24,000 nucleotides of DNA. It comes from Eubacterium saphenum ATCC 49989. Its GTDB lineage: Bacteria; Bacillota; Clostridia; Peptostreptococcales; Anaerovoracaceae. Position 1 is the stretch's first letter. Every line of letters begins with the position of its first letter. The notes below the pieces were generated by a model. It ran no database searches, was not told the origin of the DNA, and saw only the letters and a list, made by a program, of their open reading frames with translations. A program made the translations under genes and the position numbers. This document shows positions 3,519 through 21,810 of this stretch, in pieces. The DNA lies in contig GG688422.1 in assembly GCA_000161975.1 (NCBI GenBank), positions 950,187-974,186 on the forward strand, read 5' to 3'.

Positions 3519-4235
3519 CTACATAGATGAGATTGTTGAAAGAGCTAATTTGATCATCTTATCAAGCCCGGTTTCTCTTTCACTTACTGATAACTTTTCG
3601 CCGGTTTCAATGTTGTCTGTTATGGTAAGCATGCTCAGAGCCTTTACTCCGTGGTAGGCGGCGTTTATATACAGCGCTGCCGTTTCCATTTCTATTGCAG
3701 ATATCCCTAATCTTTTCCAGTGCTTGTATCTTTCGTGAGAGCTTTTGCTACTATAAAAAGATTCTTCTGTAAGCACGTTCCCGCTCATAAAGTTTAATCC
3801 GTCTTTTTGAGCCACTGCAATTGCTGCAGTTAAAAGTGAGATATCTGCGACAGGTGCCAAATGACCGTCTATTTGAAACTCACTTTGATAATTTGATGTA
3901 GTGGACGCTGAAGTCGCAAATACAATTTGAGACAGCTTTGCATCGCTTTTTATAGATCCTGCCGTACCTATTCTTATCGCATATTTTACATCGTGATCTT
4001 CAAACAGCTCATAAGAGTAAATTCCCATTGATGGAATACCCATACCGCTTGCCTGGACTGTAATTTCAGTGCCTTCATAGAATCCCGTATAACCATACAT
4101 CGCGCGAATATCGTTTATCAGCCTGGCATCATCCAAATAATTTTCCGCTATGTACTTAGCTCTAAGTGGATCGCCGGGCATCAATACTCTTTCCGCAATA
4201 TCGGCATTTTCAGGAACGTGAAGTGATGCGCTCAT
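3519..4235 (-). CDS. deoD: Purine nucleoside phosphorylase, DeoD type
   Basis: Aligns by eye along its length with DeoD (LMPGDPLRAKYIAENYL, GYTGFYEG, VQASGMGIPS, IEMETAALY, SMLTITD). I place the start at the ATG at 4235 (MSASLH...) because GGAGG sits 8 nt upstream. The track's upstream ATG at 4286 has no SD and adds 17 non-homologous residues. Confidence 0.9.
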   Translation of the reverse strand: MSASLHVPENADIAERVLMPGDPLRAKYIAENYLDDARLINDIRAMYGYTGFYEGTEITVQASGMGIPSMGIYSYELFEDHDVKYAIRIGTAGSIKSDAKLSQIVFATSASTTSNYQSEFQIDGHLAPVADISLLTAAIAVAQKDGLNFMSGNVLTEESFYSSKSSHERYKHWKRLGISAIEMETAALYINAAYHGVKALSMLTITDNIETGEKLSVSERETGLDKMIKLALSTISSM

Positions 4236-7327: not shown

Positions 7328-9409
7328 GTGCGCACCGCTGAATTCGCAGGTTGGTCAAGGGAAGCAAATGACCAAGGACAAGATGTAAATGAACACGCTG
7401 CGGTAAAAGGAGACCTTGTCATCTACGCAAAATGGAAGGACATCTATCTGGACGTAAAATACTATAAATACGAGGCAAATTCATCGCCTGCAAAGGTAAA
7501 GAGCCTTAAATATGGAAGCCGGCTCGGCGAGCTACTTCCTGAAAGTGAAACCGCAAAGGAAGGCTATGATTTAGTGGGATACAAGATAGTTGACGACAGT
7601 GGTCATTCGTTCACATACCCTGTTTCCAAAATAGAAGATGTGAAGGATTACGTGGTAAAAAAACCAATTTCCATTTATCCGATGTTTAAGCTACAAACAT
7701 TTAACCTCAAATTCAATGTCAATGGTGGCGAATATAGCGTGAATGGGGATGTTAAGCCACTTGACGATGTTACATATAATTACGGCGATACCGTTAAACT
7801 TACAGATTTACCTGATGAAAATTCTTTGAAGAAGCCAAACCATGTGTTCCTATATTGGGAATACAAAACTGACAGCATGCAAGATTATGAGAAGTTACCT
7901 GATAACTATGTGATAAAGTCAGATACATCGCTACGTGCAAGGTGGGATAGAATCCCTGCTAAGGTGAGTTTCAATCTAAACGGTGGGGATTATATGGTAG
8001 ACGGCAAAGTTGAAACCTTAGAAGACAGGAAGTATACGTATGGAGATATAATAAGGTTGTCAGACCTTCCAACTAAGGCTTCTTTAAAGAAGCCGAACCA
8101 TGAATTCATATGTTGGACATATAAGAGCGATGCTATGAGTAGCTACGAAATATTACCGGACAACTATGTAATAAGTTCAAACATTTCGTTGTTAGCCGCA
8201 TGGAAGAAGGTGGAAGCGCCTAAGCCGGAACCTGAAGAACCGACTAAACCGGTAGATCCGCCAAAACCGCCTGAACCTGAGAAACCTTCAATCCCTAACA
8301 AGTATAAGGTGAGCTTTGATATTGGCGGTGCGGAAGGCGACGTTTCGGCGATTATGGTAAATGCCGGCGAGGCTTTGGGTGATAAGCTACCGACAAATAT
8401 ACATAGAGAAGGCATGCATTTTATGGGCTGGTCCACAAAGAAGGGCGCAGAGTATCAGAATTTCTATAAATCAACAAAGGTAAACAAGAGTATTACGCTA
8501 TATCCTGTATTTAAGACAGGGTTCAGAAAAGCGATAGGAAGGCCGGGGCTCACTGCGGTAAAGGCGAATGGCTATCCGAAGCTTACGATTAAGCATCCGT
8601 CTGCCAATATTCATTCGGCGTTTAAGGTATACAGAAAAGAAAACAGCAGCACCGGTAAGGAAGTGCTTGTAGCCGTGATTCAAAGAAACGATGAACTCAG
8701 CATTTTTGACTTCGAAGCGGAGCCGGGCAAGGAATATGTGTACAGGGCGGTAGCTACAATGGTCGAAGATGGACTTGAATACTATGGCGAATCTGCGATT
8801 TCATATGTTAAGACGCATAAGAGTATAGATCTTTCCGTAAAATTAAACAATACAGGAAAAACACAATTGGTATTCACTCCGGTAGATGGGGCGTATAGGT
8901 ATAAAATCAAGATAAGGAATGTGGATATGTATACCAAGGGTGCGAAGGAAGAGCAGCTTATAGATGCGTCTGAGCTTGAAAAAGACAGCTCCGGTAATTA
9001 CGTATACACCATGAAAGATAATACATCGGGAAAATATTTTGTATATATGGTTGAGGCTATGGATGGTAACGCCGTGCTTTCAACATCAAACGAAGCTTCA
9101 ATCTTTAAACTCGATGCGGTGGAGAGGTTTAAGCTTAAGGTAAAACGCTTTAAGAAAAATAGACAGGTATTGCTTACATTTAACAGGGCAAAAAATGCTG
9201 ATGGCTATATGATCTACAAAAAAACCGGCAAAAAAGGACAGTTTGTGCTTATCAAGAAACTAGCTTCTAAAAAGGCTACAATTAAATATTTGGACAAAAA
9301 ATGCAAGGCGAATAAGCGTTATTACTACAAGGTAGTGGCGTACAAAAAATTATACGGCATAATATATAGAGGCATATACTCAAAAGTTATCGGCATAAGG
9401 GTAAAATAG
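7328..9409 (+). CDS. Large repeat protein with Listeria-Bacteroides (Flg_new/InlB-B-type) repeats, a Pro-rich linker and three FN3-like modules; no signal peptide, possibly 5'-truncated
   Basis: Opens with the second half of a Flg_new-type repeat (FAGWS..GDLVIYAKW). More repeats follow (F.LNGG..Y.YGD...L....KPNH.F..W). Then linker EAPKPEPEEPTKPVDPPKPPEPEKP and C-terminal beta-sandwich-like modules with Y.YRAVA / YYYKVVAY signatures. The in-frame stop TGA at 7310-7312 limits the ORF. The only start is a GTG 3 nt after AGGAGG, which is too close for a normal SD. Confidence 0.65.
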   Translation: MRTAEFAGWSREANDQGQDVNEHAAVKGDLVIYAKWKDIYLDVKYYKYEANSSPAKVKSLKYGSRLGELLPESETAKEGYDLVGYKIVDDSGHSFTYPVSKIEDVKDYVVKKPISIYPMFKLQTFNLKFNVNGGEYSVNGDVKPLDDVTYNYGDTVKLTDLPDENSLKKPNHVFLYWEYKTDSMQDYEKLPDNYVIKSDTSLRARWDRIPAKVSFNLNGGDYMVDGKVETLEDRKYTYGDIIRLSDLPTKASLKKPNHEFICWTYKSDAMSSYEILPDNYVISSNISLLAAWKKVEAPKPEPEEPTKPVDPPKPPEPEKPSIPNKYKVSFDIGGAEGDVSAIMVNAGEALGDKLPTNIHREGMHFMGWSTKKGAEYQNFYKSTKVNKSITLYPVFKTGFRKAIGRPGLTAVKANGYPKLTIKHPSANIHSAFKVYRKENSSTGKEVLVAVIQRNDELSIFDFEAEPGKEYVYRAVATMVEDGLEYYGESAISYVKTHKSIDLSVKLNNTGKTQLVFTPVDGAYRYKIKIRNVDMYTKGAKEEQLIDASELEKDSSGNYVYTMKDNTSGKYFVYMVEAMDGNAVLSTSNEASIFKLDAVERFKLKVKRFKKNRQVLLTFNRAKNADGYMIYKKTGKKGQFVLIKKLASKKATIKYLDKKCKANKRYYYKVVAYKKLYGIIYRGIYSKVIGIRVK
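7700..8215 (+). repeat. Intragenic tandem duplication, 2 x 258 nt (86 aa)
   Basis: FNLKFNVNGGEYSVNGDVKPLDDVTYNYGDTVKLTDLPDENSLKKPNHVFLYWEYKTD...RARW and VSFNLNGGDYMVDGKVETLEDRKYTYGDIIRLSDLPTKASLKKPNHEFICWTYKSD...LAAW. The NGG motifs are offset by exactly 258 nt (7712 and 7970). Confidence 0.85.
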
Positions 9410-9469
9410 CAACATCTAATAGTCGTTGGAAATTTAATTTCAATTTTTGCGCAAAAACCGGTATTGGTG

Positions 9470-9478
9470 TGGTATACT
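9470..9478 (+). promoter_or_regulatory. Extended -10 promoter element (TGgTATACT) for the repeat-RNA/toxin transcript
   Basis: TG at 9470-9471 and TATACT at 9473-9478. The expected transcription start about 7 nt downstream coincides with the first base of repeat copy 1 (9485). There is no good -35; a perfect palindrome occupies that position. Confidence 0.5.
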
Positions 9479-9484
9479 TTAATC

Positions 9485-9628
9485 GTAAAGAGGGCGACCC
9501 GCTGCCGTGGAAACAAAAAGGTGGAACTGTAAAGAGGGCGACCCGCTGCCGTGGAAACAAAAAGGTGGAACTGTAAAGAGGGCGACCCGCTGCCGTGGAA
9601 ACAAAAAGGTGGAACTGTAAAGAAGGGG
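9485..9628 (+). ncRNA. toxI: ToxI-like type III antitoxin RNA precursor: tandem array of a 44-nt unit (3 perfect copies plus a partial fourth)
   Basis: The unit GTAAAGAGGGCGACCCGCTGCCGTGGAAACAAAAAGGTGGAACT occurs at 9485-9528, 9529-9572 and 9573-9616 with no mismatch and no spacer. A fourth copy starts at 9617 (gtaaaga...) and then diverges. The array lies directly upstream of, and on the same strand as, a ToxN/AbiQ-like ORF. Confidence 0.8.
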
Positions 9629-9655
9629 AGGAGCGTATCGCTCCTCTCTATTTAA
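9625..9655 (+). terminator. Intrinsic terminator/attenuator between the repeat array and the toxin gene
   Basis: Perfect 8-bp stem GAGGAGCG (9628-9635) with CGCTCCTC (9639-9646) around loop TAT, extendable by G-C/G-U pairs, followed by tctattt. The position matches the terminator that sets the antitoxin:toxin ratio in described ToxIN loci. Confidence 0.6.
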
Positions 9656-9669
9656 AAGAGGAAGTAAGT

Positions 9670-10251
9670 ATGATTAGTACAGAGGATTATGCGTTATACA
9701 CAATAGATATAAATTATTTAAGGTACCTATATTCAATCGATAAGGAGGTATATTATAATCCGAGTTATAAAACTCGAATAAAACCTTTTGTAGGAATAAT
9801 TACGGGCATTCAGAACAATGAATATTTTATACCGTTAACATCTGCAAAGCCTAAGCATAAAAAATGGAGGAATGTATCTAGTAGTCATTTTTTAGTATAC
9901 GAAACCATAAGAAAAAATATTGACCATATAATTGTTAATGATGATATATACAAGAAGGGTTCAAAAGAAGAAGAAATCATACATGTATTATCTGTATTAG
10001 ATATAAAAAAGATGATCCCGTTAGTTCAGAATTGTTATGAAAAAATAGATATTGAAAATATCAATGACAAGAAATTTCAGTCACTATTGAAAAAAGAATT
10101 GGATTTTTGTAAAAAACACAAAAAGAAAATCTTAAAGAAAGTGGAAAATTTTTATACTACACAGGTAAAAAACAACACTGTTAAGTTTGCAAGCTGTAAT
10201 TTCGCTCTATTGGAAAAAGCGATGGAAGATTACAAAAAAGAAAAAGAATAG
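9670..10251 (+). CDS. toxN: ToxN/AbiQ-family type III toxin (sequence-specific endoribonuclease)
   Basis: 193 aa from ATG 9670, with SD gagga 7 nt upstream. Blocks match ToxN/AbiQ by eye: LYTIDINYLRYL..DKEV (ToxN FYTISSKYIEYL..DDKV), KPFVGIITGIQNNEYFIPLTSAKPKH (KAFIGIVLEIQGHKYLAPLTSPK), DIKKMIPL (NLKFMIPI) and SCNFALLEKA (TCNFSLLEEK). The track's start at 9595 is a GTG inside repeat copy 3 and is rejected. Confidence 0.85.
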   Translation: MISTEDYALYTIDINYLRYLYSIDKEVYYNPSYKTRIKPFVGIITGIQNNEYFIPLTSAKPKHKKWRNVSSSHFLVYETIRKNIDHIIVNDDIYKKGSKEEEIIHVLSVLDIKKMIPLVQNCYEKIDIENINDKKFQSLLKKELDFCKKHKKKILKKVENFYTTQVKNNTVKFASCNFALLEKAMEDYKKEKE

Positions 10252-10301
10252 GACAATATTATTTTTGGTTCAGAAGAATGTTGTAATCGCATGCTGAGCT
10301 G

Positions 10302-10330
10302 TTGACAAGGGCTATGGTTTATAGTACTAT
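10302..10330 (+). promoter_or_regulatory. Candidate sigma-A promoter for tRNA-Thr/tuf
   Basis: TTGACA (10302-10307), 17-nt spacer, TACTAT (10325-10330), about 50 nt upstream of the tRNA. Confidence 0.5.
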
Positions 10331-10381
10331 CAGATATGATTAGGTTTTAATATTGATTATATTATTGCCTTTGTTAAATTT

Positions 10382-10458
10382 GCTGTTGTAGCTCAGTCGG
10401 TAGAGCACTTCCTTGGTAAGGAAGAGGTTCGGCAGTTCAAGTCTGCTCAACAGCTCCA
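10382..10458 (+). tRNA. tRNA-Thr (anticodon GGT)
   Basis: Acceptor gctgttg/caacagc, D arm gctc..gagc, anticodon stem cttcc/ggaag with loop TTGGTAA, T loop ttcaagt, encoded CCA. A tRNA-Thr immediately upstream of tuf is a common arrangement. Confidence 0.9.
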
Positions 10459-10487: not shown

Positions 10488-11681
10488 ATGGCAAAGGAAA
10501 AATTTGAGAGAACCAAACCGCATATCAACATAGGAACGATAGGTCACGTAGACCACGGAAAGACAACACTGACAGCGGCAATCACAAAGACGTTGCAGGA
10601 GAGGTATCAGCTGGGATCATCAGTAGCATTTGATCAGATAGATAAGGCGCCTGAAGAGAAGGAAAGAGGAATCACAATAGCGACCTCACACGTAGAATAC
10701 GAAACACCTAACAGGCACTATGCACACGTAGATTGTCCGGGACACGCAGACTATGTAAAGAACATGATCACAGGAGCAGCGCAGATGGACGGAGCCATCT
10801 TGGTAGTAGCAGCTACAGACGGACCTATGCCACAGACAAGAGAGCACATCCTGCTTTCAAGACAGGTAGGTGTACCGTACATCGTAGTATTCCTAAATAA
10901 GTGCGACATGGTAGACGATGAAGAGCTACTCGATCTAGTGGAGATGGAAGTGAGAGAATTACTCGACCAGTACGACTTCCCGGGAGACGACACTCCGATA
11001 ATAAGAGGGTCAGCGCTTGGCGCATTGGAAGATCCAAGCGGCAAATGGGGAGATAAGATAGTAGAGCTGTTTGAAAAGATAGACGAATACATTCCTGAGC
11101 CTGAAAGAGATAACGACAAGCCGTTCATAATGCCTATAGAGGATATCTTCTCAATCACAGGAAGAGGAACGGTAGCAACAGGAAGAGTAGAGAGAGGAAC
11201 ACTCGAGGTAGGAGCAGAGGTAGAGCTTATAGGTCTTACAGAAGAGAGAAGAAAGGTAGTAGTAACAGGAATAGAGATGTTCAGGAAGCTACTCGACAAG
11301 GCGGAGACAGGAGACAACATAGGAGCGCTACTAAGAGGTGTGCAAAGAGAAGAGATCAAGAGAGGTCAGGTATTGGCAGCAACAGGTACTATCAACCCAC
11401 ACACTAAGTTTAAGGGGGAGGTATACGTGCTAAAGAAGGAAGAAGGCGGAAGACATACGCCGTTCTTTAACGGATACAGACCGCAGTTCTACTTCAGAAC
11501 AACAGACGTAACAGGAGATCTAAAGTTACCTGAAGGTACGGAGATGTGCATGCCGGGAGATAACGTACAGATGGAAATAGAGCTGATCACACCGATAGCG
11601 ATAGAAGAAGGATTAAGATTTGCGATAAGAGAAGGTGGAAGAACGGTAGGTTCCGGAGTAGTAGCAAGTATTATCGAATAG
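10488..11681 (+). CDS. tuf: Translation elongation factor Tu
   Basis: 397 aa with unmistakable EF-Tu sequence ([26 protein letters not shown]). Strong SD aaggagga. Confidence 0.99.
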
Positions 11682-20652: not shown

Positions 20653-20728
20653 GGGCGCATAGCTCAGCTGGGAGAGCACCTGCCTTACAAGCAGGGGGTC
20701 ATAGGTTCGAGCCCTATTGCGCCCACCA
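20653..20728 (+). tRNA. tRNA-Val (anticodon TAC)
   Basis: Manual cloverleaf: acceptor gggcgca/tgcgccc, anticodon stem cctgc/gcagg, loop CTTACAA, T loop ttcgagc, CCA encoded. Confidence 0.92.
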
Positions 20729-20732
20729 TTTT

Positions 20733-20809
20733 GGTCCGGTAGTTCAGTTGGTTAGAATGCCAGCCTGTCACGCTGGAGGTCGTCGGTTCGAACCCGATCC
20801 GGATCGCCA
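20733..20809 (+). tRNA. tRNA-Asp (anticodon GTC)
   Basis: Acceptor ggtccgg/ccggatc (one G-U), anticodon stem ccagc/gctgg, loop CTGTCAC, T loop ttcgaac, CCA encoded. Confidence 0.92.
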
Positions 20810-20818
20810 TTTTCTTTC

Positions 20819-20893
20819 GCTGGCGTGGCTCAATGGTAGAGCAGCTGATTTGTAATCAGCAGGTTGTGGGTTCGATTCCCTCCGCCAGCTCCA
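20819..20893 (+). tRNA. tRNA-Thr (anticodon TGT)
   Basis: Acceptor gctggcg/cgccagc, anticodon stem gctga/tcagc, loop TTTGTAA, T loop ttcgatt, CCA encoded. Confidence 0.92.
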
Positions 20894-20896
20894 TCT

Positions 20897-20982
20897 GGAG
20901 GAGTTCCCGAGTTGGCCAAAGGGGACGGACTGTAACTCCGTTAGCTTAGCTTTCAGTGGTTCGAATCCACTCTCCTCCACCA
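20897..20982 (+). tRNA. tRNA-Tyr (anticodon GTA), class II with long variable arm
   Basis: Acceptor ggaggag/ctcctcc, anticodon stem acgga/tccgt, loop CTGTAAC, long variable arm, T loop ttcgaat, CCA encoded. Confidence 0.9.
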
Positions 20983-21043
20983 GTTTTTGTTTAGGGATTG
21001 ATTTTTGACAACGTTTTAGCCATTAGGCTAACCTCGATATTTT

Positions 21044-21118
21044 GCGGAAGTGGCTCAGGGGTAGAGCATCGCCTTGCCAAGGCGAGGGTCGCGAGTTCGA
21101 ATCTCGTCTTCCGCTCCA
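21044..21118 (+). tRNA. tRNA-Gly (anticodon GCC)
   Basis: Acceptor gcggaag/cttccgc, anticodon stem tcgcc/ggcga, loop TTGCCAA, T loop ttcgaat, CCA encoded. Confidence 0.92.
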
Positions 21119-21122
21119 TTGT

Positions 21123-21196
21123 GCGGATGTAGTTCAATGGTAGAACTCCAGCCTTCCAAGCTGGTAGCGTGAGTTCGATTCTCATCATCCGCTCCA
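21123..21196 (+). tRNA. tRNA-Gly (anticodon TCC)
   Basis: Acceptor gcggatg/catccgc, anticodon stem ccagc/gctgg, loop CTTCCAA, T loop ttcgatt, CCA encoded. Confidence 0.92.
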
Positions 21197-21202
21197 CTAT
21201 TT

Positions 21203-21279
21203 GGGCCCATAGCTCAGTAGGATAGAGCAACGGCCTTCTAAGCCGTGCGTCCGGGGTTCGAATCCCTGTGGGCTCACCA
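21203..21279 (+). tRNA. tRNA-Arg (anticodon TCT)
   Basis: Acceptor gggccca/tgggctc (one G-U), anticodon stem acggc/gccgt, loop CTTCTAA, T loop ttcgaat, CCA encoded. Confidence 0.9.
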
Positions 21280-21282
21280 CAT

Positions 21283-21357
21283 TGGGGTATAGCCAAGTGG
21301 TAAGGCAACGGACTTTGACTCCGTTATTCGTAGGTTCGAGTCCTGCTACCCCAGCCA
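21283..21357 (+). tRNA. tRNA-Gln (anticodon TTG)
   Basis: Acceptor tggggta/tacccca, anticodon stem acgga/tccgt, loop CTTTGAC, T loop ttcgagt, CCA encoded. Confidence 0.9.
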
Positions 21358-21361
21358 CTAT

Positions 21362-21437
21362 GACCCATTAGCTCAGTCGGCAGAGCACTTGACTTTTAAT
21401 CAAGGTGTCCCGCGTTCGAATCGCGGATGGGTCACCA
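21362..21437 (+). tRNA. tRNA-Lys (anticodon TTT)
   Basis: Acceptor gacccat/atgggtc, anticodon stem cttga/tcaag, loop CTTTTAA, T loop ttcgaat, CCA encoded. Confidence 0.92.
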
Positions 21438-21441
21438 TTTT

Positions 21442-21530
21442 GGAAAGGTGTCCGAGTGGTTTAAGGAGCTGGTCTTGAAAACCAGTGATTCCGAAAGGGA
21501 CCGTGGGTTCGAATCCCACCCTTTCCGCCA
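21442..21530 (+). tRNA. tRNA-Ser (anticodon TGA), class II
   Basis: Acceptor ggaaagg/cctttcc, anticodon stem ctggt/accag, loop CTTGAAA, long variable arm, T loop ttcgaat, CCA encoded. Confidence 0.9.
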
Positions 21531-21543
21531 TTTAGAGTAATGG

Positions 21544-21638
21544 GGAGAAGTACTCAAGTAGGCTTAAGAGGACGGTTTGCTAAACCGTTAGGGTCTTGTT
21601 TAGGGGCCGCATGGGTTCGAATCCCATCTTCTCCGCCA
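21544..21638 (+). tRNA. tRNA-Ser (anticodon GCT), class II
   Basis: Acceptor ggagaag/cttctcc, anticodon stem acggt/accgt, loop TTGCTAA, long variable arm, T loop ttcgaat, CCA encoded. At 95 nt it is slightly long for a tRNA-Ser. Confidence 0.85.
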
Positions 21639-21642
21639 ATGT

Positions 21643-21718
21643 AGGGGTATAGCTCAGCTGGTAGAGCAATGGTCTCCAAAACCATGTGTCGTGGGTTCAA
21701 GTCCTACTGCCCCTGCCA
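21643..21718 (+). tRNA. tRNA-Trp (anticodon CCA)
   Basis: Acceptor aggggta/tgcccct (one U-G), anticodon stem atggt/accat, loop CTCCAAA, T loop ttcaagt, CCA encoded. Confidence 0.9.
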
Positions 21719-21733
21719 CATAATTAACATCAT

Positions 21734-21810
21734 CGGGGTGTAGCGCAGTTTGGTAGCGCAACTGGTTTGGGACCAGTGGGTCGCGGGTTCAAATCCTGCC
21801 ACCCCGACCA
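21734..21810 (+). tRNA. tRNA-Pro (anticodon TGG)
   Basis: Acceptor cggggtg/caccccg, anticodon stem actgg/ccagt, loop TTTGGGA, T loop ttcaaat, CCA encoded. Confidence 0.92.

Follow-up and report, generated by a model that had tools for sequence, protein, structure and literature searches.

A probable toxIN-family type III toxin-antitoxin operon in Eubacterium saphenum and the predicted pseudoknot of its antitoxin repeats

A stretch of 24,000 nucleotides from the chromosome of the oral bacterium Eubacterium saphenum ATCC 49989 (the window) contains a perfect tandem repeat upstream of an open reading frame for 193 amino acids. The question is whether the two form a type III toxin-antitoxin module and, if so, whether the repeat is a new antitoxin RNA. 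The type III system type has been textbook knowledge since 2009-2012. Our analysis indicates that the region is very probably a complete toxIN-family operon, including the mechanism set out below, and the module is a genuine, ordinary and previously known member of type III. The features of the locus are collected in Table 1.

Table 1. Elements of the E. saphenum toxIN locus, in window coordinates.
Feature	Position	Strand	Remarks
Candidate promoter TGTG-G-TATACT	9468-9478	+	Gram-positive TRTGn extended -10, read from sequence
toxI antitoxin RNA gene	9485-9623	+	3.2 perfect tandem copies, 44-nt unit
Unit 1	9486-9529	+	units 2 and 3 at +44 and +88
UAAAG linker/processing motif, unit 1	9486-9490	+	putative cleavage role
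Stem 1a GGCG, unit 1	9493-9496	+	
Stem 2a CCGC, unit 1	9499-9502	+	
Stem 1b UGCC, unit 1	9503-9506	+	
Loop 3 GUGGAAACAAAAAG, unit 1	9507-9520	+	14 nt
Stem 2b GUGG, unit 1	9521-9524	+	
3' tail AACUG, unit 1	9525-9529	+	
Terminal UAAAG	9618-9622	+	partial fourth copy; candidate 3' processing site for unit 3
Inter-genic hairpin GGGGAGGAGCG-UAU-CGCUCCUCUCU	9625-9649	+	11 bp; read as attenuating terminator of type III loci
Shine-Dalgarno core GAGG	9658-9661	+	8 nt before ATG
toxN, ToxN/AbiQ-family endoribonuclease toxin	9670-10251	+	193 aa; profile, PDB sequence and fold matches

Tandem Repeats Finder reported a single array of 3.2 copies with a 44-nt period and 100% matches (9485-9623; score 278), and no other array across the 24-kb window scored above 59. 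Among E. saphenum strains there may be a variation between 1.2, 2.2 and 3.2 copies. The consensus is identical to that of an earlier, sequence-only reading of this DNA, which had noted three perfect head-to-tail 44-nt copies at 9485-9616; three such copies are far beyond chance expectation. The decaying fourth copy of that reading is present, but it amounts to GTAAAGA (9617-9623), only 7 nt, before the sequence diverges. Covariance model R1 matches the array at 9486-9529, 9530-9573 and 9574-9617 (42.8 bits, E = 2.4e-8), with no further match elsewhere in the 24-kb window. The array ends 46 nt before the ATG of toxN, on the same strand; an upstream tandem array of this kind is one of the features by which Blower et al. 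(2012) recognise toxIN systems.

Could the array instead be a protein repeat? This would require the 218-aa ORF starting at GTG 9595 to be real, or else the ORFs that read the repeats in antisense at 9325-9604; GenBank entry EEU03595.1 is indeed annotated from GTG 9595, and antisense ORFs of 41-63 aa cross the array. However, a period of 44 nt is not divisible by 3, homologous toxins start with the Met encoded at 9670 (an almost invariant M1), and an N-terminal extension from GTG 9595 would be translated through the hairpin. Substitutions between homologous units, moreover, keep base pairs rather than codons. We regard a coding array as almost inconceivable. An RNA gene at this position agrees with the earlier remark that this half of the module is invisible to ORF calling: gene callers do miss toxI.

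The ORF that follows clearly encodes a toxin of the ToxN/AbiQ family. A profile search, proposed as a check by the sequence-only reading, matched positions 3-159 of the 159 in Pfam PF13958 (E = 1.4e-39; 136.2 bits, where the cut-off is 25) and the PADLOC AbiQ model (E = 4.7e-28, 96.5 bits). NCBIfam gave no family match for the toxin, just noise (ribosomal protein L3 at 16 bits). In the PDB, phmmer found ToxN_Pa (2xd0, 1.5e-15), E. coli ToxN (7d8o) and ToxN_Bt (4ato). According to an AlphaFold model (pLDDT 88.7), the 193-aa protein has the ToxN fold, a twisted β-core with flanking helices related to Kid/MazF; at E <= 0.001, Foldseek retrieved from the PDB solely 2xd0, 7d8o, 4ato and 4glk (TM to target 0.72-0.76), with MazF next at E of about 0.05-1. 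The active site of ToxN_Pa consists of Tyr29, Lys33, Thr52, Ser53 and Lys55 (PMC5086642). These residues align with Y33, K38, T57, S58 and K60, of which Y33, K38, S58 and K60 are invariant among 33 homologues (alignment A1). The ToxN/AbiQ motif blocks picked out earlier by eye are likewise present, and their columns are invariant among the homologues.

The earlier reading had left the sub-family undecided and considered the repeat length closer to that of CptI. A cptIN-family or otherwise non-toxIN system would be compatible with the 44-nt unit, given that CptI repeats average 44.8 nt (range 40-48) in Table 2 of Blower et al. (PMC3401426), but the same table lists toxIN repeats of 31-62 nt, and the length does not discriminate. 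The toxin scores five-fold over the gathering score of the Pfam ToxN_toxin family, no CptN chain (4RMO) appeared among PDB matches by phmmer at E <= 1 or Foldseek at E <= 0.001, and the RNA has the ToxI core described below. We give such a system practically no chance. By its sequence matches and predicted fold, the 193-aa protein belongs unambiguously to the toxIN family and not to CptN, and a chromosomal type III module, as first proposed, is borne out by the pairing of a ToxN-family toxin with a tandem-repeat RNA gene.

An exact protein look-up returned EEU03595.1 (E. saphenum ATCC 49989) as identical to the 218-aa ORF from GTG 9595. For this strain, Blower et al. (2012, NAR 40:6158; PMC3401426) give one toxIN-family locus, 'Esap', in their Table 1. 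Because the ORF is EEU03595.1 and the strain has this single toxIN entry, we equate our locus with 'Esap', and the suggestion that the locus is novel falls away. The 'Esap' entry in that paper stands as a census item, without experiment, covariation analysis or processing site for the locus. In GenBank, EEU03595.1 is a 'hypothetical protein' whose start is mis-called within the array, and there is no annotation for the RNA gene. A protein identical to the E. saphenum toxin is present on 73 contigs, which we counted, under selection, in favour of a toxIN operon.

If the array is a ToxI antitoxin, its units should have relatives in other genomes, and a search for homologous toxins preceded by repeats had also been proposed. 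It was positive: of 80 homologous toxin genes in other genomes, 74 have homologous units of 36-44 nt immediately before them in the same orientation, and the order promoter, units, UAAAG, hairpin, Shine-Dalgarno sequence and ATG is common to the homologous loci. Tandem Repeats Finder alone missed the arrays of the closest homologues, because these consist of two units, 36 and 42 nt long, that have diverged; they were recovered using upstream DNA and the covariance model. The resulting UAAAG-type ToxI group lies upstream of at least 74 ToxN homologues in Firmicutes, Fusobacteria and Mollicutes of the mouth and gut; carriers include Lachnoanaerobaculum [Eubacterium] saburreum DSM 3986, Anaerococcus, Peptoniphilus, Fusobacterium necrophorum and E. 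faecalis pGTC3. The toxins of this group are 42-56% identical to that of E. saphenum, and its units (consensus TAAAGAAGGTGTCCCRCTACCTATATCCCAAAGGTGGAACAT) are homologous, with the same predicted pseudoknot and the same UAAAG linkers. The units differ in being 36-43 nt long, often two diverged rather than perfect copies, with a loop 3 of 7-13 nt and a stem 1 that is mostly GGUG/UACC. A 44-nt unit with GGCG/UGCC is confined to the clade of E. saphenum, whose toxins P0003-P0005 are 65-69% identical.

The search thus supplied the covariation needed to examine the RNA fold. We counted base pairs in 78 distinct homologous units from >70 loci, and also in 28 consensus units. Stem 1 is paired in 99.7% of cases over the 78 distinct units, and its third pair exchanges between UA and CG. 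Stem 2 was absent from the model used to build the unit alignment. Its pair 14:53 is CG in 43 units and UA in 35, and pair 16:51 is AU in 37, GU in 20, GC in 16 and UA in 5; neither position is unpaired in any of the 78 units. Overall, 91% of the pseudoknot cells are paired, compared with <=56% when the partners are slid, and none of 500 shuffles reached the observed covariation score. The covariation strongly supports a predicted ToxI-type H pseudoknot (order 1a-2a-1b-2b) formed by stem 1 (GGCG/UGCC) and stem 2 (CCGC/GUGG). The 14-nt loop between 1b and 2b corresponds to 'Group II' as defined in PMC3401426. A longer stem 2 that takes in pairs 13:54 and 12:55 was discarded for the window, where both are mismatched; pair 13:54 is unpaired in 56 of the 78 units. 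An alternative hairpin of CCGC with a proximal GUGG (9507-9510) was also rejected: in the sister clade, this site reads GAGG or GGGG.

The second conserved element is the UAAAG motif in the linker between pseudoknots, which opens 71 of the 78 distinct units; TAAAG also directly follows the last aligned unit in 71 of 80 homologous-locus arrays. In the classical ToxI of pECA1039 and in ToxI_Bt, cleavage occurs in an A-run 5 nt upstream of GGUG (PMC8860590, PMC5086642), and UAAAG sits where this cleavage site does. By this analogy, the near-invariant UAAAG is the likely processing site. The sequence-only reading had favoured the A-run ACAAAAAGG (9514-9521, +44 and +88), in which case the mature RNA would span the DNA repeat boundary. 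The unit has no A-tract longer than this one, ToxN_Bt cleaves within an A5 run and AbiQ at A/AAA (PMC5086642), and Blower et al. state that mature units may depart from the DNA repeat register (PMC3401426). But ACAAAAAGG lies between stems 1b and 2b, inside loop 3, where just 11 of the 78 distinct units have AAAA and 21 lack even AAA. If the RNA were cut there, stems 2a and 1b would adjoin directly and a loop of 0 nt would have to cross a 4-bp helix, which we infer to be sterically impossible for an H-type pseudoknot. In ToxIN complexes of known structure, the sequence that is cleaved belongs to single-stranded overhangs lying outside the pseudoknot (PMC8860590). Cleavage in the loop 3 A-run is improbable, and UAAAG is retained as the candidate.

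How does the unit compare with characterised antitoxins? The sequence-only reading saw no similarity to Pectobacterium ToxI and spoke of an unrecognised repeat, perhaps a new antitoxin RNA variant. Neither statement survives comparison: the unit shares a pseudoknot core of (A/G)GGYG-N6-YRCC with the ToxI of pECA1039, of B. thuringiensis and of a lactococcal plasmid, and it falls within the large conserved group described above. Judged by its GGYG-N6-YRCC core, as in classical ToxI, the E. saphenum repeat does not represent a novel antitoxin type, the link being one of core motif and architecture rather than a statistical RNA match, as model R1 does not reach the pECA1039 or Bt ToxI. ToxIN of Pectobacterium atrosepticum pECA1039 (PDB 2XD0/2XDD) has the same order of promoter, tandem repeats, hairpin and toxN, the same toxin fold (TM 0.76 to target) and active-site residues, and an AGGUG-N6-UACC core; a 2b stem lies downstream of this core, and an AAA cleavage motif precedes stem 1a by about 5 nt. 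The proteins are only 26-28% identical, and the RNAs differ in unit length and copy number (36 nt x 5.6 in pECA1039, 44 nt x 3.2 in E. saphenum), loop 3 (7 versus 14 nt), stem 1 (GGUG/UACC versus GGCG/UGCC) and linker motif (GAAAU versus UAAAG). The pECA1039 system is also plasmid-borne, in a Gram-negative host, and has a terminator with a strong T-tract. Bacillus thuringiensis ToxIN (PDB 4ATO; Rfam ToxI RF02519) shares the toxin family and fold, GGUG-N6-UACC and an A-run linker, but its unit is 34 nt with a loop 3 of 5 nt. AbiQ/antiQ of Lactococcus lactis (PDB 4GLK) has the same toxin family and fold, with weak sequence similarity (E = 0.014).

Rfam RF02519 (gathering threshold 50 bits) did not match the repeats even at E <= 10. 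This silence carries little weight, because the model covers one narrow subgroup: in a control it matched just the 34-nt Bt-type units (59.4 bits) and missed the pECA1039 ToxI. The UAAAG-type ToxI group is absent from Rfam. The chance-level matches to RsaOG, HOXA11-AS and a CRISPR-DR fragment, from searches of the window at the gathering threshold and of the repeats at E <= 10, were rejected.

The candidate promoter TGTGgTATACT lies 7 nt before the first UAAAG, and transcription is predicted to start at about 9485-9486, at this UAAAG. A consensus promoter scan found no convincing -35 element (TTGCGC at 9447-9452 is 20 nt away), and the poor -35 is the reason why the scan did not call the promoter. 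For toxIN systems, Blower et al. (2012) prefer, but do not demand, a promoter at the start of the array. The homologous loci have TTGACA-N17-TGTTATACT at an equal distance from their first TAAAG, and pECA1039 has GGTATACT 7 nt ahead of its first ToxI unit. Of the hairpin and T-tract noted earlier between repeats and toxin, the 11-bp hairpin stands (MFE -18.9 kcal/mol, z = -3.13 relative to shuffles), but it is followed by a weak U-tract (AUUUAAAA if counted from the 11-bp stem, UCUAUUUA from the 8-bp core), making the efficiency of termination uncertain; a terminator scan called the hairpin on the minus strand alone. At the equivalent place, the homologous loci have a hairpin followed by T7. 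A palindromic repeat between array and toxin gene, serving as Rho-independent terminator, is among the toxIN features of Blower et al. (2012), and a role of such a hairpin in setting the toxI:toxN ratio is established for ToxIN (PMC3401426). The reported Shine-Dalgarno sequence and ATG were found as described, with the stop codon of the 193-aa ORF ending at 10251.

By analogy with known ToxIN systems, we infer the following sequence of processing, ring assembly, toxicity and neutralisation. The extended -10 promoter would start a transcript bearing three identical 44-nt ToxI units, and the hairpin would halt most transcripts, so that antitoxin RNA exceeds toxin mRNA; read-through transcripts would encode the 193-aa ToxN endoribonuclease. 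Each unit would adopt the H-type pseudoknot, its loop 3 being A-rich and 14 nt long. ToxN may then cut inside the AAA of the UAAAG linkers (9486-9490, 9530-9534, 9574-9578 and 9618-9622), releasing 44-nt pseudoknots whose single-stranded tails would fill the active sites of neighbouring ToxN monomers in a closed, inactive RNA-protein ring. If the supply or stability of the antitoxin dropped, for instance upon phage infection, free ToxN would cleave A-rich RNA and arrest the cell.

An anti-phage function has been demonstrated for ToxIN_Pa, AbiQ and E. coli ToxIN (PMC3401426, PMC8860590), and analogy with ToxIN_Pa and AbiQ suggests that the E. saphenum module may also act in phage defence by abortive infection. 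Such a role cannot be assumed, because abortive infection is not seen with ToxIN_Bt in the host it comes from, nor with the tested CptIN systems (PMC5086642). The module could be a working type III system of another kind, either a selfish addiction or stabilisation element or a stress-response element, lodged beside tRNA-Thr and tuf. Its neighbours are housekeeping genes (flavodoxin, surface protein, tRNA-Thr, tuf, Mur ligase, prs, pth and mfd), a defence-island context was looked for around the module and not found, and a search of 50,697 phage records found no phage-borne pseudo-ToxI mimic of the repeats. Set against this are the strong match of the toxin to the PADLOC AbiQ model and the situation in close relatives, where the module is accompanied by other toxin-antitoxin or defence-type genes, RelB/YoeB and Fic. 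We consider a module devoid of a defence role possible but rather unlikely. The GC content of toxN (0.27-0.30) contrasts with that of the flanks (0.40-0.48), which fits horizontal acquisition.

The 78-unit alignment could seed a broader Rfam family and so allow such loci to be annotated automatically. The conserved UAAAG amounts to a prediction of the cleavage specificity of this clade. Tentatively, the partner of the UAAAG-type ToxI group may be a ToxN clade with a cleavage specificity of its own (UA/AAG or UAA/AG), and the longer 44-nt unit and 14-nt loop 3 of the E. saphenum clade could alter the geometry of the ring compared with the triangular hexamers formed with 34-36-nt units.

By its sequence and predicted fold, the 193-residue protein is clearly a toxin of the ToxN/AbiQ family. 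A profile-HMM comparison, proposed in the sequence-only reading, bore this out: the protein covers the whole of Pfam PF13958 (ToxN_toxin) with 136.2 bits (cut-off, 25) and matches the PADLOC AbiQ model at 4.7e-28. A sequence search of the PDB ranked highest the ToxN proteins of P. atrosepticum (1.5e-15), E. coli and B. thuringiensis; AbiQ was matched weakly, and no CptN chain was found among the matches. An AlphaFold model (33 homologues as input; pLDDT 88.7) retrieved only the four ToxN/AbiQ structures at E ≤ 0.001 (TM to target, 0.72-0.76), with MazF far behind. The active site of ToxN_Pa comprises Tyr29, Lys33, Thr52, Ser53 and Lys55 (PMC5086642); Y33, K38, T57, S58 and K60 align to these residues, and all but T57 are invariant in the homologue alignment. 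The ToxN matches, the fold, the active-site alignment and the lack of a CptN chain settle the sub-family, previously left undecided, as toxIN and not cptIN; the 44-nt unit falls within the 31-62 nt spanned by toxIN repeats (PMC3401426, Table 2). The Pfam match, the ToxN fold and the tandem ToxI-type units upstream confirm a type III toxin-antitoxin module.

Features of the toxIN module and its downstream neighbours (window coordinates)
Feature	Position	Details
Candidate extended -10 (Gram-positive type)	9468-9478	TGTGgTATACT; 7 nt 5' of first UAAAG
toxI repeat array	9485-9623	period 44, 3.2 copies, 100% identity, score 278 (Tandem Repeats Finder)
Stem 1, unit 1	9493-9496 : 9503-9506	1a GGCG : 1b UGCC
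Stem 2, unit 1	9499-9502 : 9521-9524	2a CCGC : 2b GUGG
Loop 3, unit 1	9507-9520	GUGGAAACAAAAAG
Hairpin, 11-bp	9625-9649	-18.9 kcal/mol, z = -3.1
GAGG	9658-9661	5' of ATG 9670
toxN ORF	9670-10251	ATG start, 193 aa
tRNA-Thr(GGU)	10382-10458	
tuf	10488-11681	

The exact protein is present on 73 contigs. Read from GTG 9595 instead, the frame gives 218 residues identical to those of EEU03595.1 ('hypothetical protein GCWU000322_00879', E. saphenum ATCC 49989); this annotated start sits inside repeat 3, so that translation from it would cross the terminator hairpin. The N-termini of homologues point to ATG 9670 as the true start. The toxI RNA gene carries no annotation in the window; pECA1039 similarly has a CDS labelled 'hypothetical protein' across its ToxI (L095, 201-422). 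One ToxN-domain protein, P0104 (312 residues), also matches WLM/SprT-like metallopeptidase-type families (PF08325, PF10263, PF01863); the combination reflects either an unusual fusion or mis-joining in gene calling.

The three 44-nt repeats, the hairpin and the 193-residue reading frame are all as first described; a single array stands out in Tandem Repeats Finder (TRF), and its consensus, also read from the sequence, is GTAAAGAGGGCGACCCGCTGCCGTGGAAACAAAAAGGTGGAACT. Of the hairpin and T-tract noted behind the array, the hairpin stands, but its U-tract is weak and a terminator scan of the + strand did not call it. The spacing between the candidate -10 and the first UAAAG is identical in the window, its homologues and pECA1039; no good -35 was found near this -10. 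Contigs encoding the identical toxin (L089-L094, about 3816-3954 in each) carry 3.2, 2.2 or 1.2 copies of the unit, with a few SNPs within it (GATCC for GACCC, AAATAAAAAG). The variation in copy number may be a real polymorphism, or the 132-nt array may have collapsed in short-read (k141) assemblies.

A survey that took one genome for each species gave 80 loci encoding toxin homologues of 37-56% identity, in Anaerococcus, Peptoniphilus, Fusobacterium, Lachnospiraceae, Gemella, Veillonella, Mollicutes and others. By TRF, many have 40-43-nt arrays upstream of the toxin that are obviously related to the window unit. The closest genome homologues are preceded by a pair of diverged units, 36 and 42 nt long, missed by TRF but plain by eye; the nearest relatives overall, from oral metagenomes (toxins 65-69% identical), have the 44-nt unit TAAAGAGGGCGACCCACTGCCGAGGAAACTAAAAGGTGGAGTTT. 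A covariance model that drew on 28 consensus units and encoded no structure but stem 1 found units immediately 5' of the toxin and on its strand in 74 of the 80 loci, three of the other six having no upstream DNA; in the window it matched only the three units (9486-9617). Individual loci vary. The closest relatives (L084, L086) have the module in tandem duplicate: L086 (2046-3648) has two ToxN genes of 215 residues each, and L084 (1-3648) has a 75-residue ToxN fragment and an additional ToxN gene (179 residues) that is cut off by the start of the locus. The modules adjoin RelB/YoeB and a Fic-domain gene, a small toxin-antitoxin cluster absent from the window. One unit in L033 (225-279) reaches 55 nt through an internal duplication of 14 nt (CTACCTATATCCG...) located between its stems 2a and 1b. 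In L039 (1-84) and L042 (1889-2014) a stretch of 0.8-1 kb separates the units from the toxin match downstream, like the long gaps known for some Roseburia and Actinobacillus loci (Blower et al.).

With its strands in the ToxI order (1a-2a-1b-2b), an H-type pseudoknot fits the units, and the repeats upstream of homologous toxins supplied the covariation sought for it, in both stems. Among 78 distinct units, stem 1 is 99.7% paired, its third pair exchanging UA and CG (CG in the window). In an alignment of these units built without stem 2, stem-2 pair 14:53 is CG in 43 and UA in 35, and pair 16:51 is AU in 37, GU in 20, GC in 16 and UA in 5, with none unpaired at either. Of all cells, 91% are paired; sliding the partners brings this to 56% at most, and none of 500 shuffles reached the observed covariation score. 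A MAFFT-only alignment of the 28 consensus units gave the same pairing picture. Two extra stem-2 pairs were considered and rejected, being neither conserved nor matched in the window.

The pECA1039 36-nt ToxI unit was confirmed on NC_011767.1, and units were also read from a B. thuringiensis plasmid, a lactococcal plasmid and E. faecalis pGTC3. All share (A/G)GGUG-N6-UACC, then a loop, then a stem whose sequence complements the N6 segment. The window unit is built on the same scaffold, its stem 1 being GGCG/UGCC and its loop 3 long, which places it in 'Group II' as PMC3401426 uses the term. The proposal of a novel antitoxin RNA without similarity to ToxI is not supported, given this common core and the related units at 74 of 80 loci. 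The Rfam ToxI family RF02519 did not match the window. In a control run (L095, L097) it recognised only the 34-nt Bacillus (B. thuringiensis) type, missing the founding pECA1039 ToxI and all units with UAAAG linkers upstream of ToxN homologues in oral and gut Firmicutes and Fusobacteria; this UAAAG-type group is thus without an Rfam family.

In solved ToxIN complexes the cleavage sequence lies in single-stranded overhangs outside the pseudoknot, and reported ToxN-family specificities are AA/AU, GAA/AU, AAA/AA (written A/AAAA in PMC5086642) and A/AAA (PMC8860590, PMC5086642). Both pECA1039 and ToxI_Bt (Rfam register) are cut 5 nt upstream of stem 1a, a position within the AAA of UAAAG in the window. 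UAAAG opens 71 of the 78 distinct units and, in 71 of 80 arrays, also stands directly after the last aligned unit, which accounts for arrays with '.1-.3' extra copies, including GTAAAGA, all that remains of a fourth copy in the window. The A5 run ACAAAAAGG, earlier put forward as a candidate processing site, is not supported: it sits in loop 3, where AAAA occurs in only 11 of 78 units, and cutting there would leave a pseudoknot with a zero-length loop across a helix. On the basis of the overhang position, the conservation of UAAAG and these objections, the predicted products are 44 nt long, with the cut at UA/AAG or UAA/AG.

Within 9600-10400 the toxN gene has a GC content of 0.27-0.30, against 0.40-0.48 in flanking genes, which suggests horizontal acquisition beside tRNA-Thr(GGU) and tuf. 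Housekeeping genes surround it: upstream lie those for DUF3793, flavodoxin and a Listeria-Bacteroides-repeat surface protein, and downstream those for tRNA-Thr(GGU), tuf, a Mur ligase, prs, pth and mfd. The module appears to be a lone insertion acquired horizontally, outside any defence island. The surface-protein gene immediately 5' of it (7328-9409) varies by strain: the window version encodes 693 residues, including a Flg_new repeat, and the versions in L089, L091, L092 and L094 (1-3740/3828) encode 1458-1531 residues and have an added Peptidase_S8 domain. Thirteen tRNA genes (Val, Asp, Thr, Tyr, Gly x2, Arg, Gln, Lys, Ser x2, Trp, Pro) are densely clustered on the + strand at 20653-21810.

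For E. saphenum ATCC 49989 (Esap), one toxIN locus appears in Table 1 of Blower et al. 2012 (PMC3401426), so the locus is already catalogued, though not individually studied before; our literature search found saphenum and ToxN named together only there. The module is a known kind of system at a previously listed locus. It belongs to the toxIN family, its antitoxin RNA has the structure described here, and it is best explained as a functional toxIN operon working like ToxIN_Pa, Ec and Bt. ToxN would cut the precursor RNA at the linkers, and the freed pseudoknots would bridge toxin monomers into an inactive ring, neutralising them; loss of the antitoxin would free the RNase, which may serve abortive infection, the least certain of these functions.
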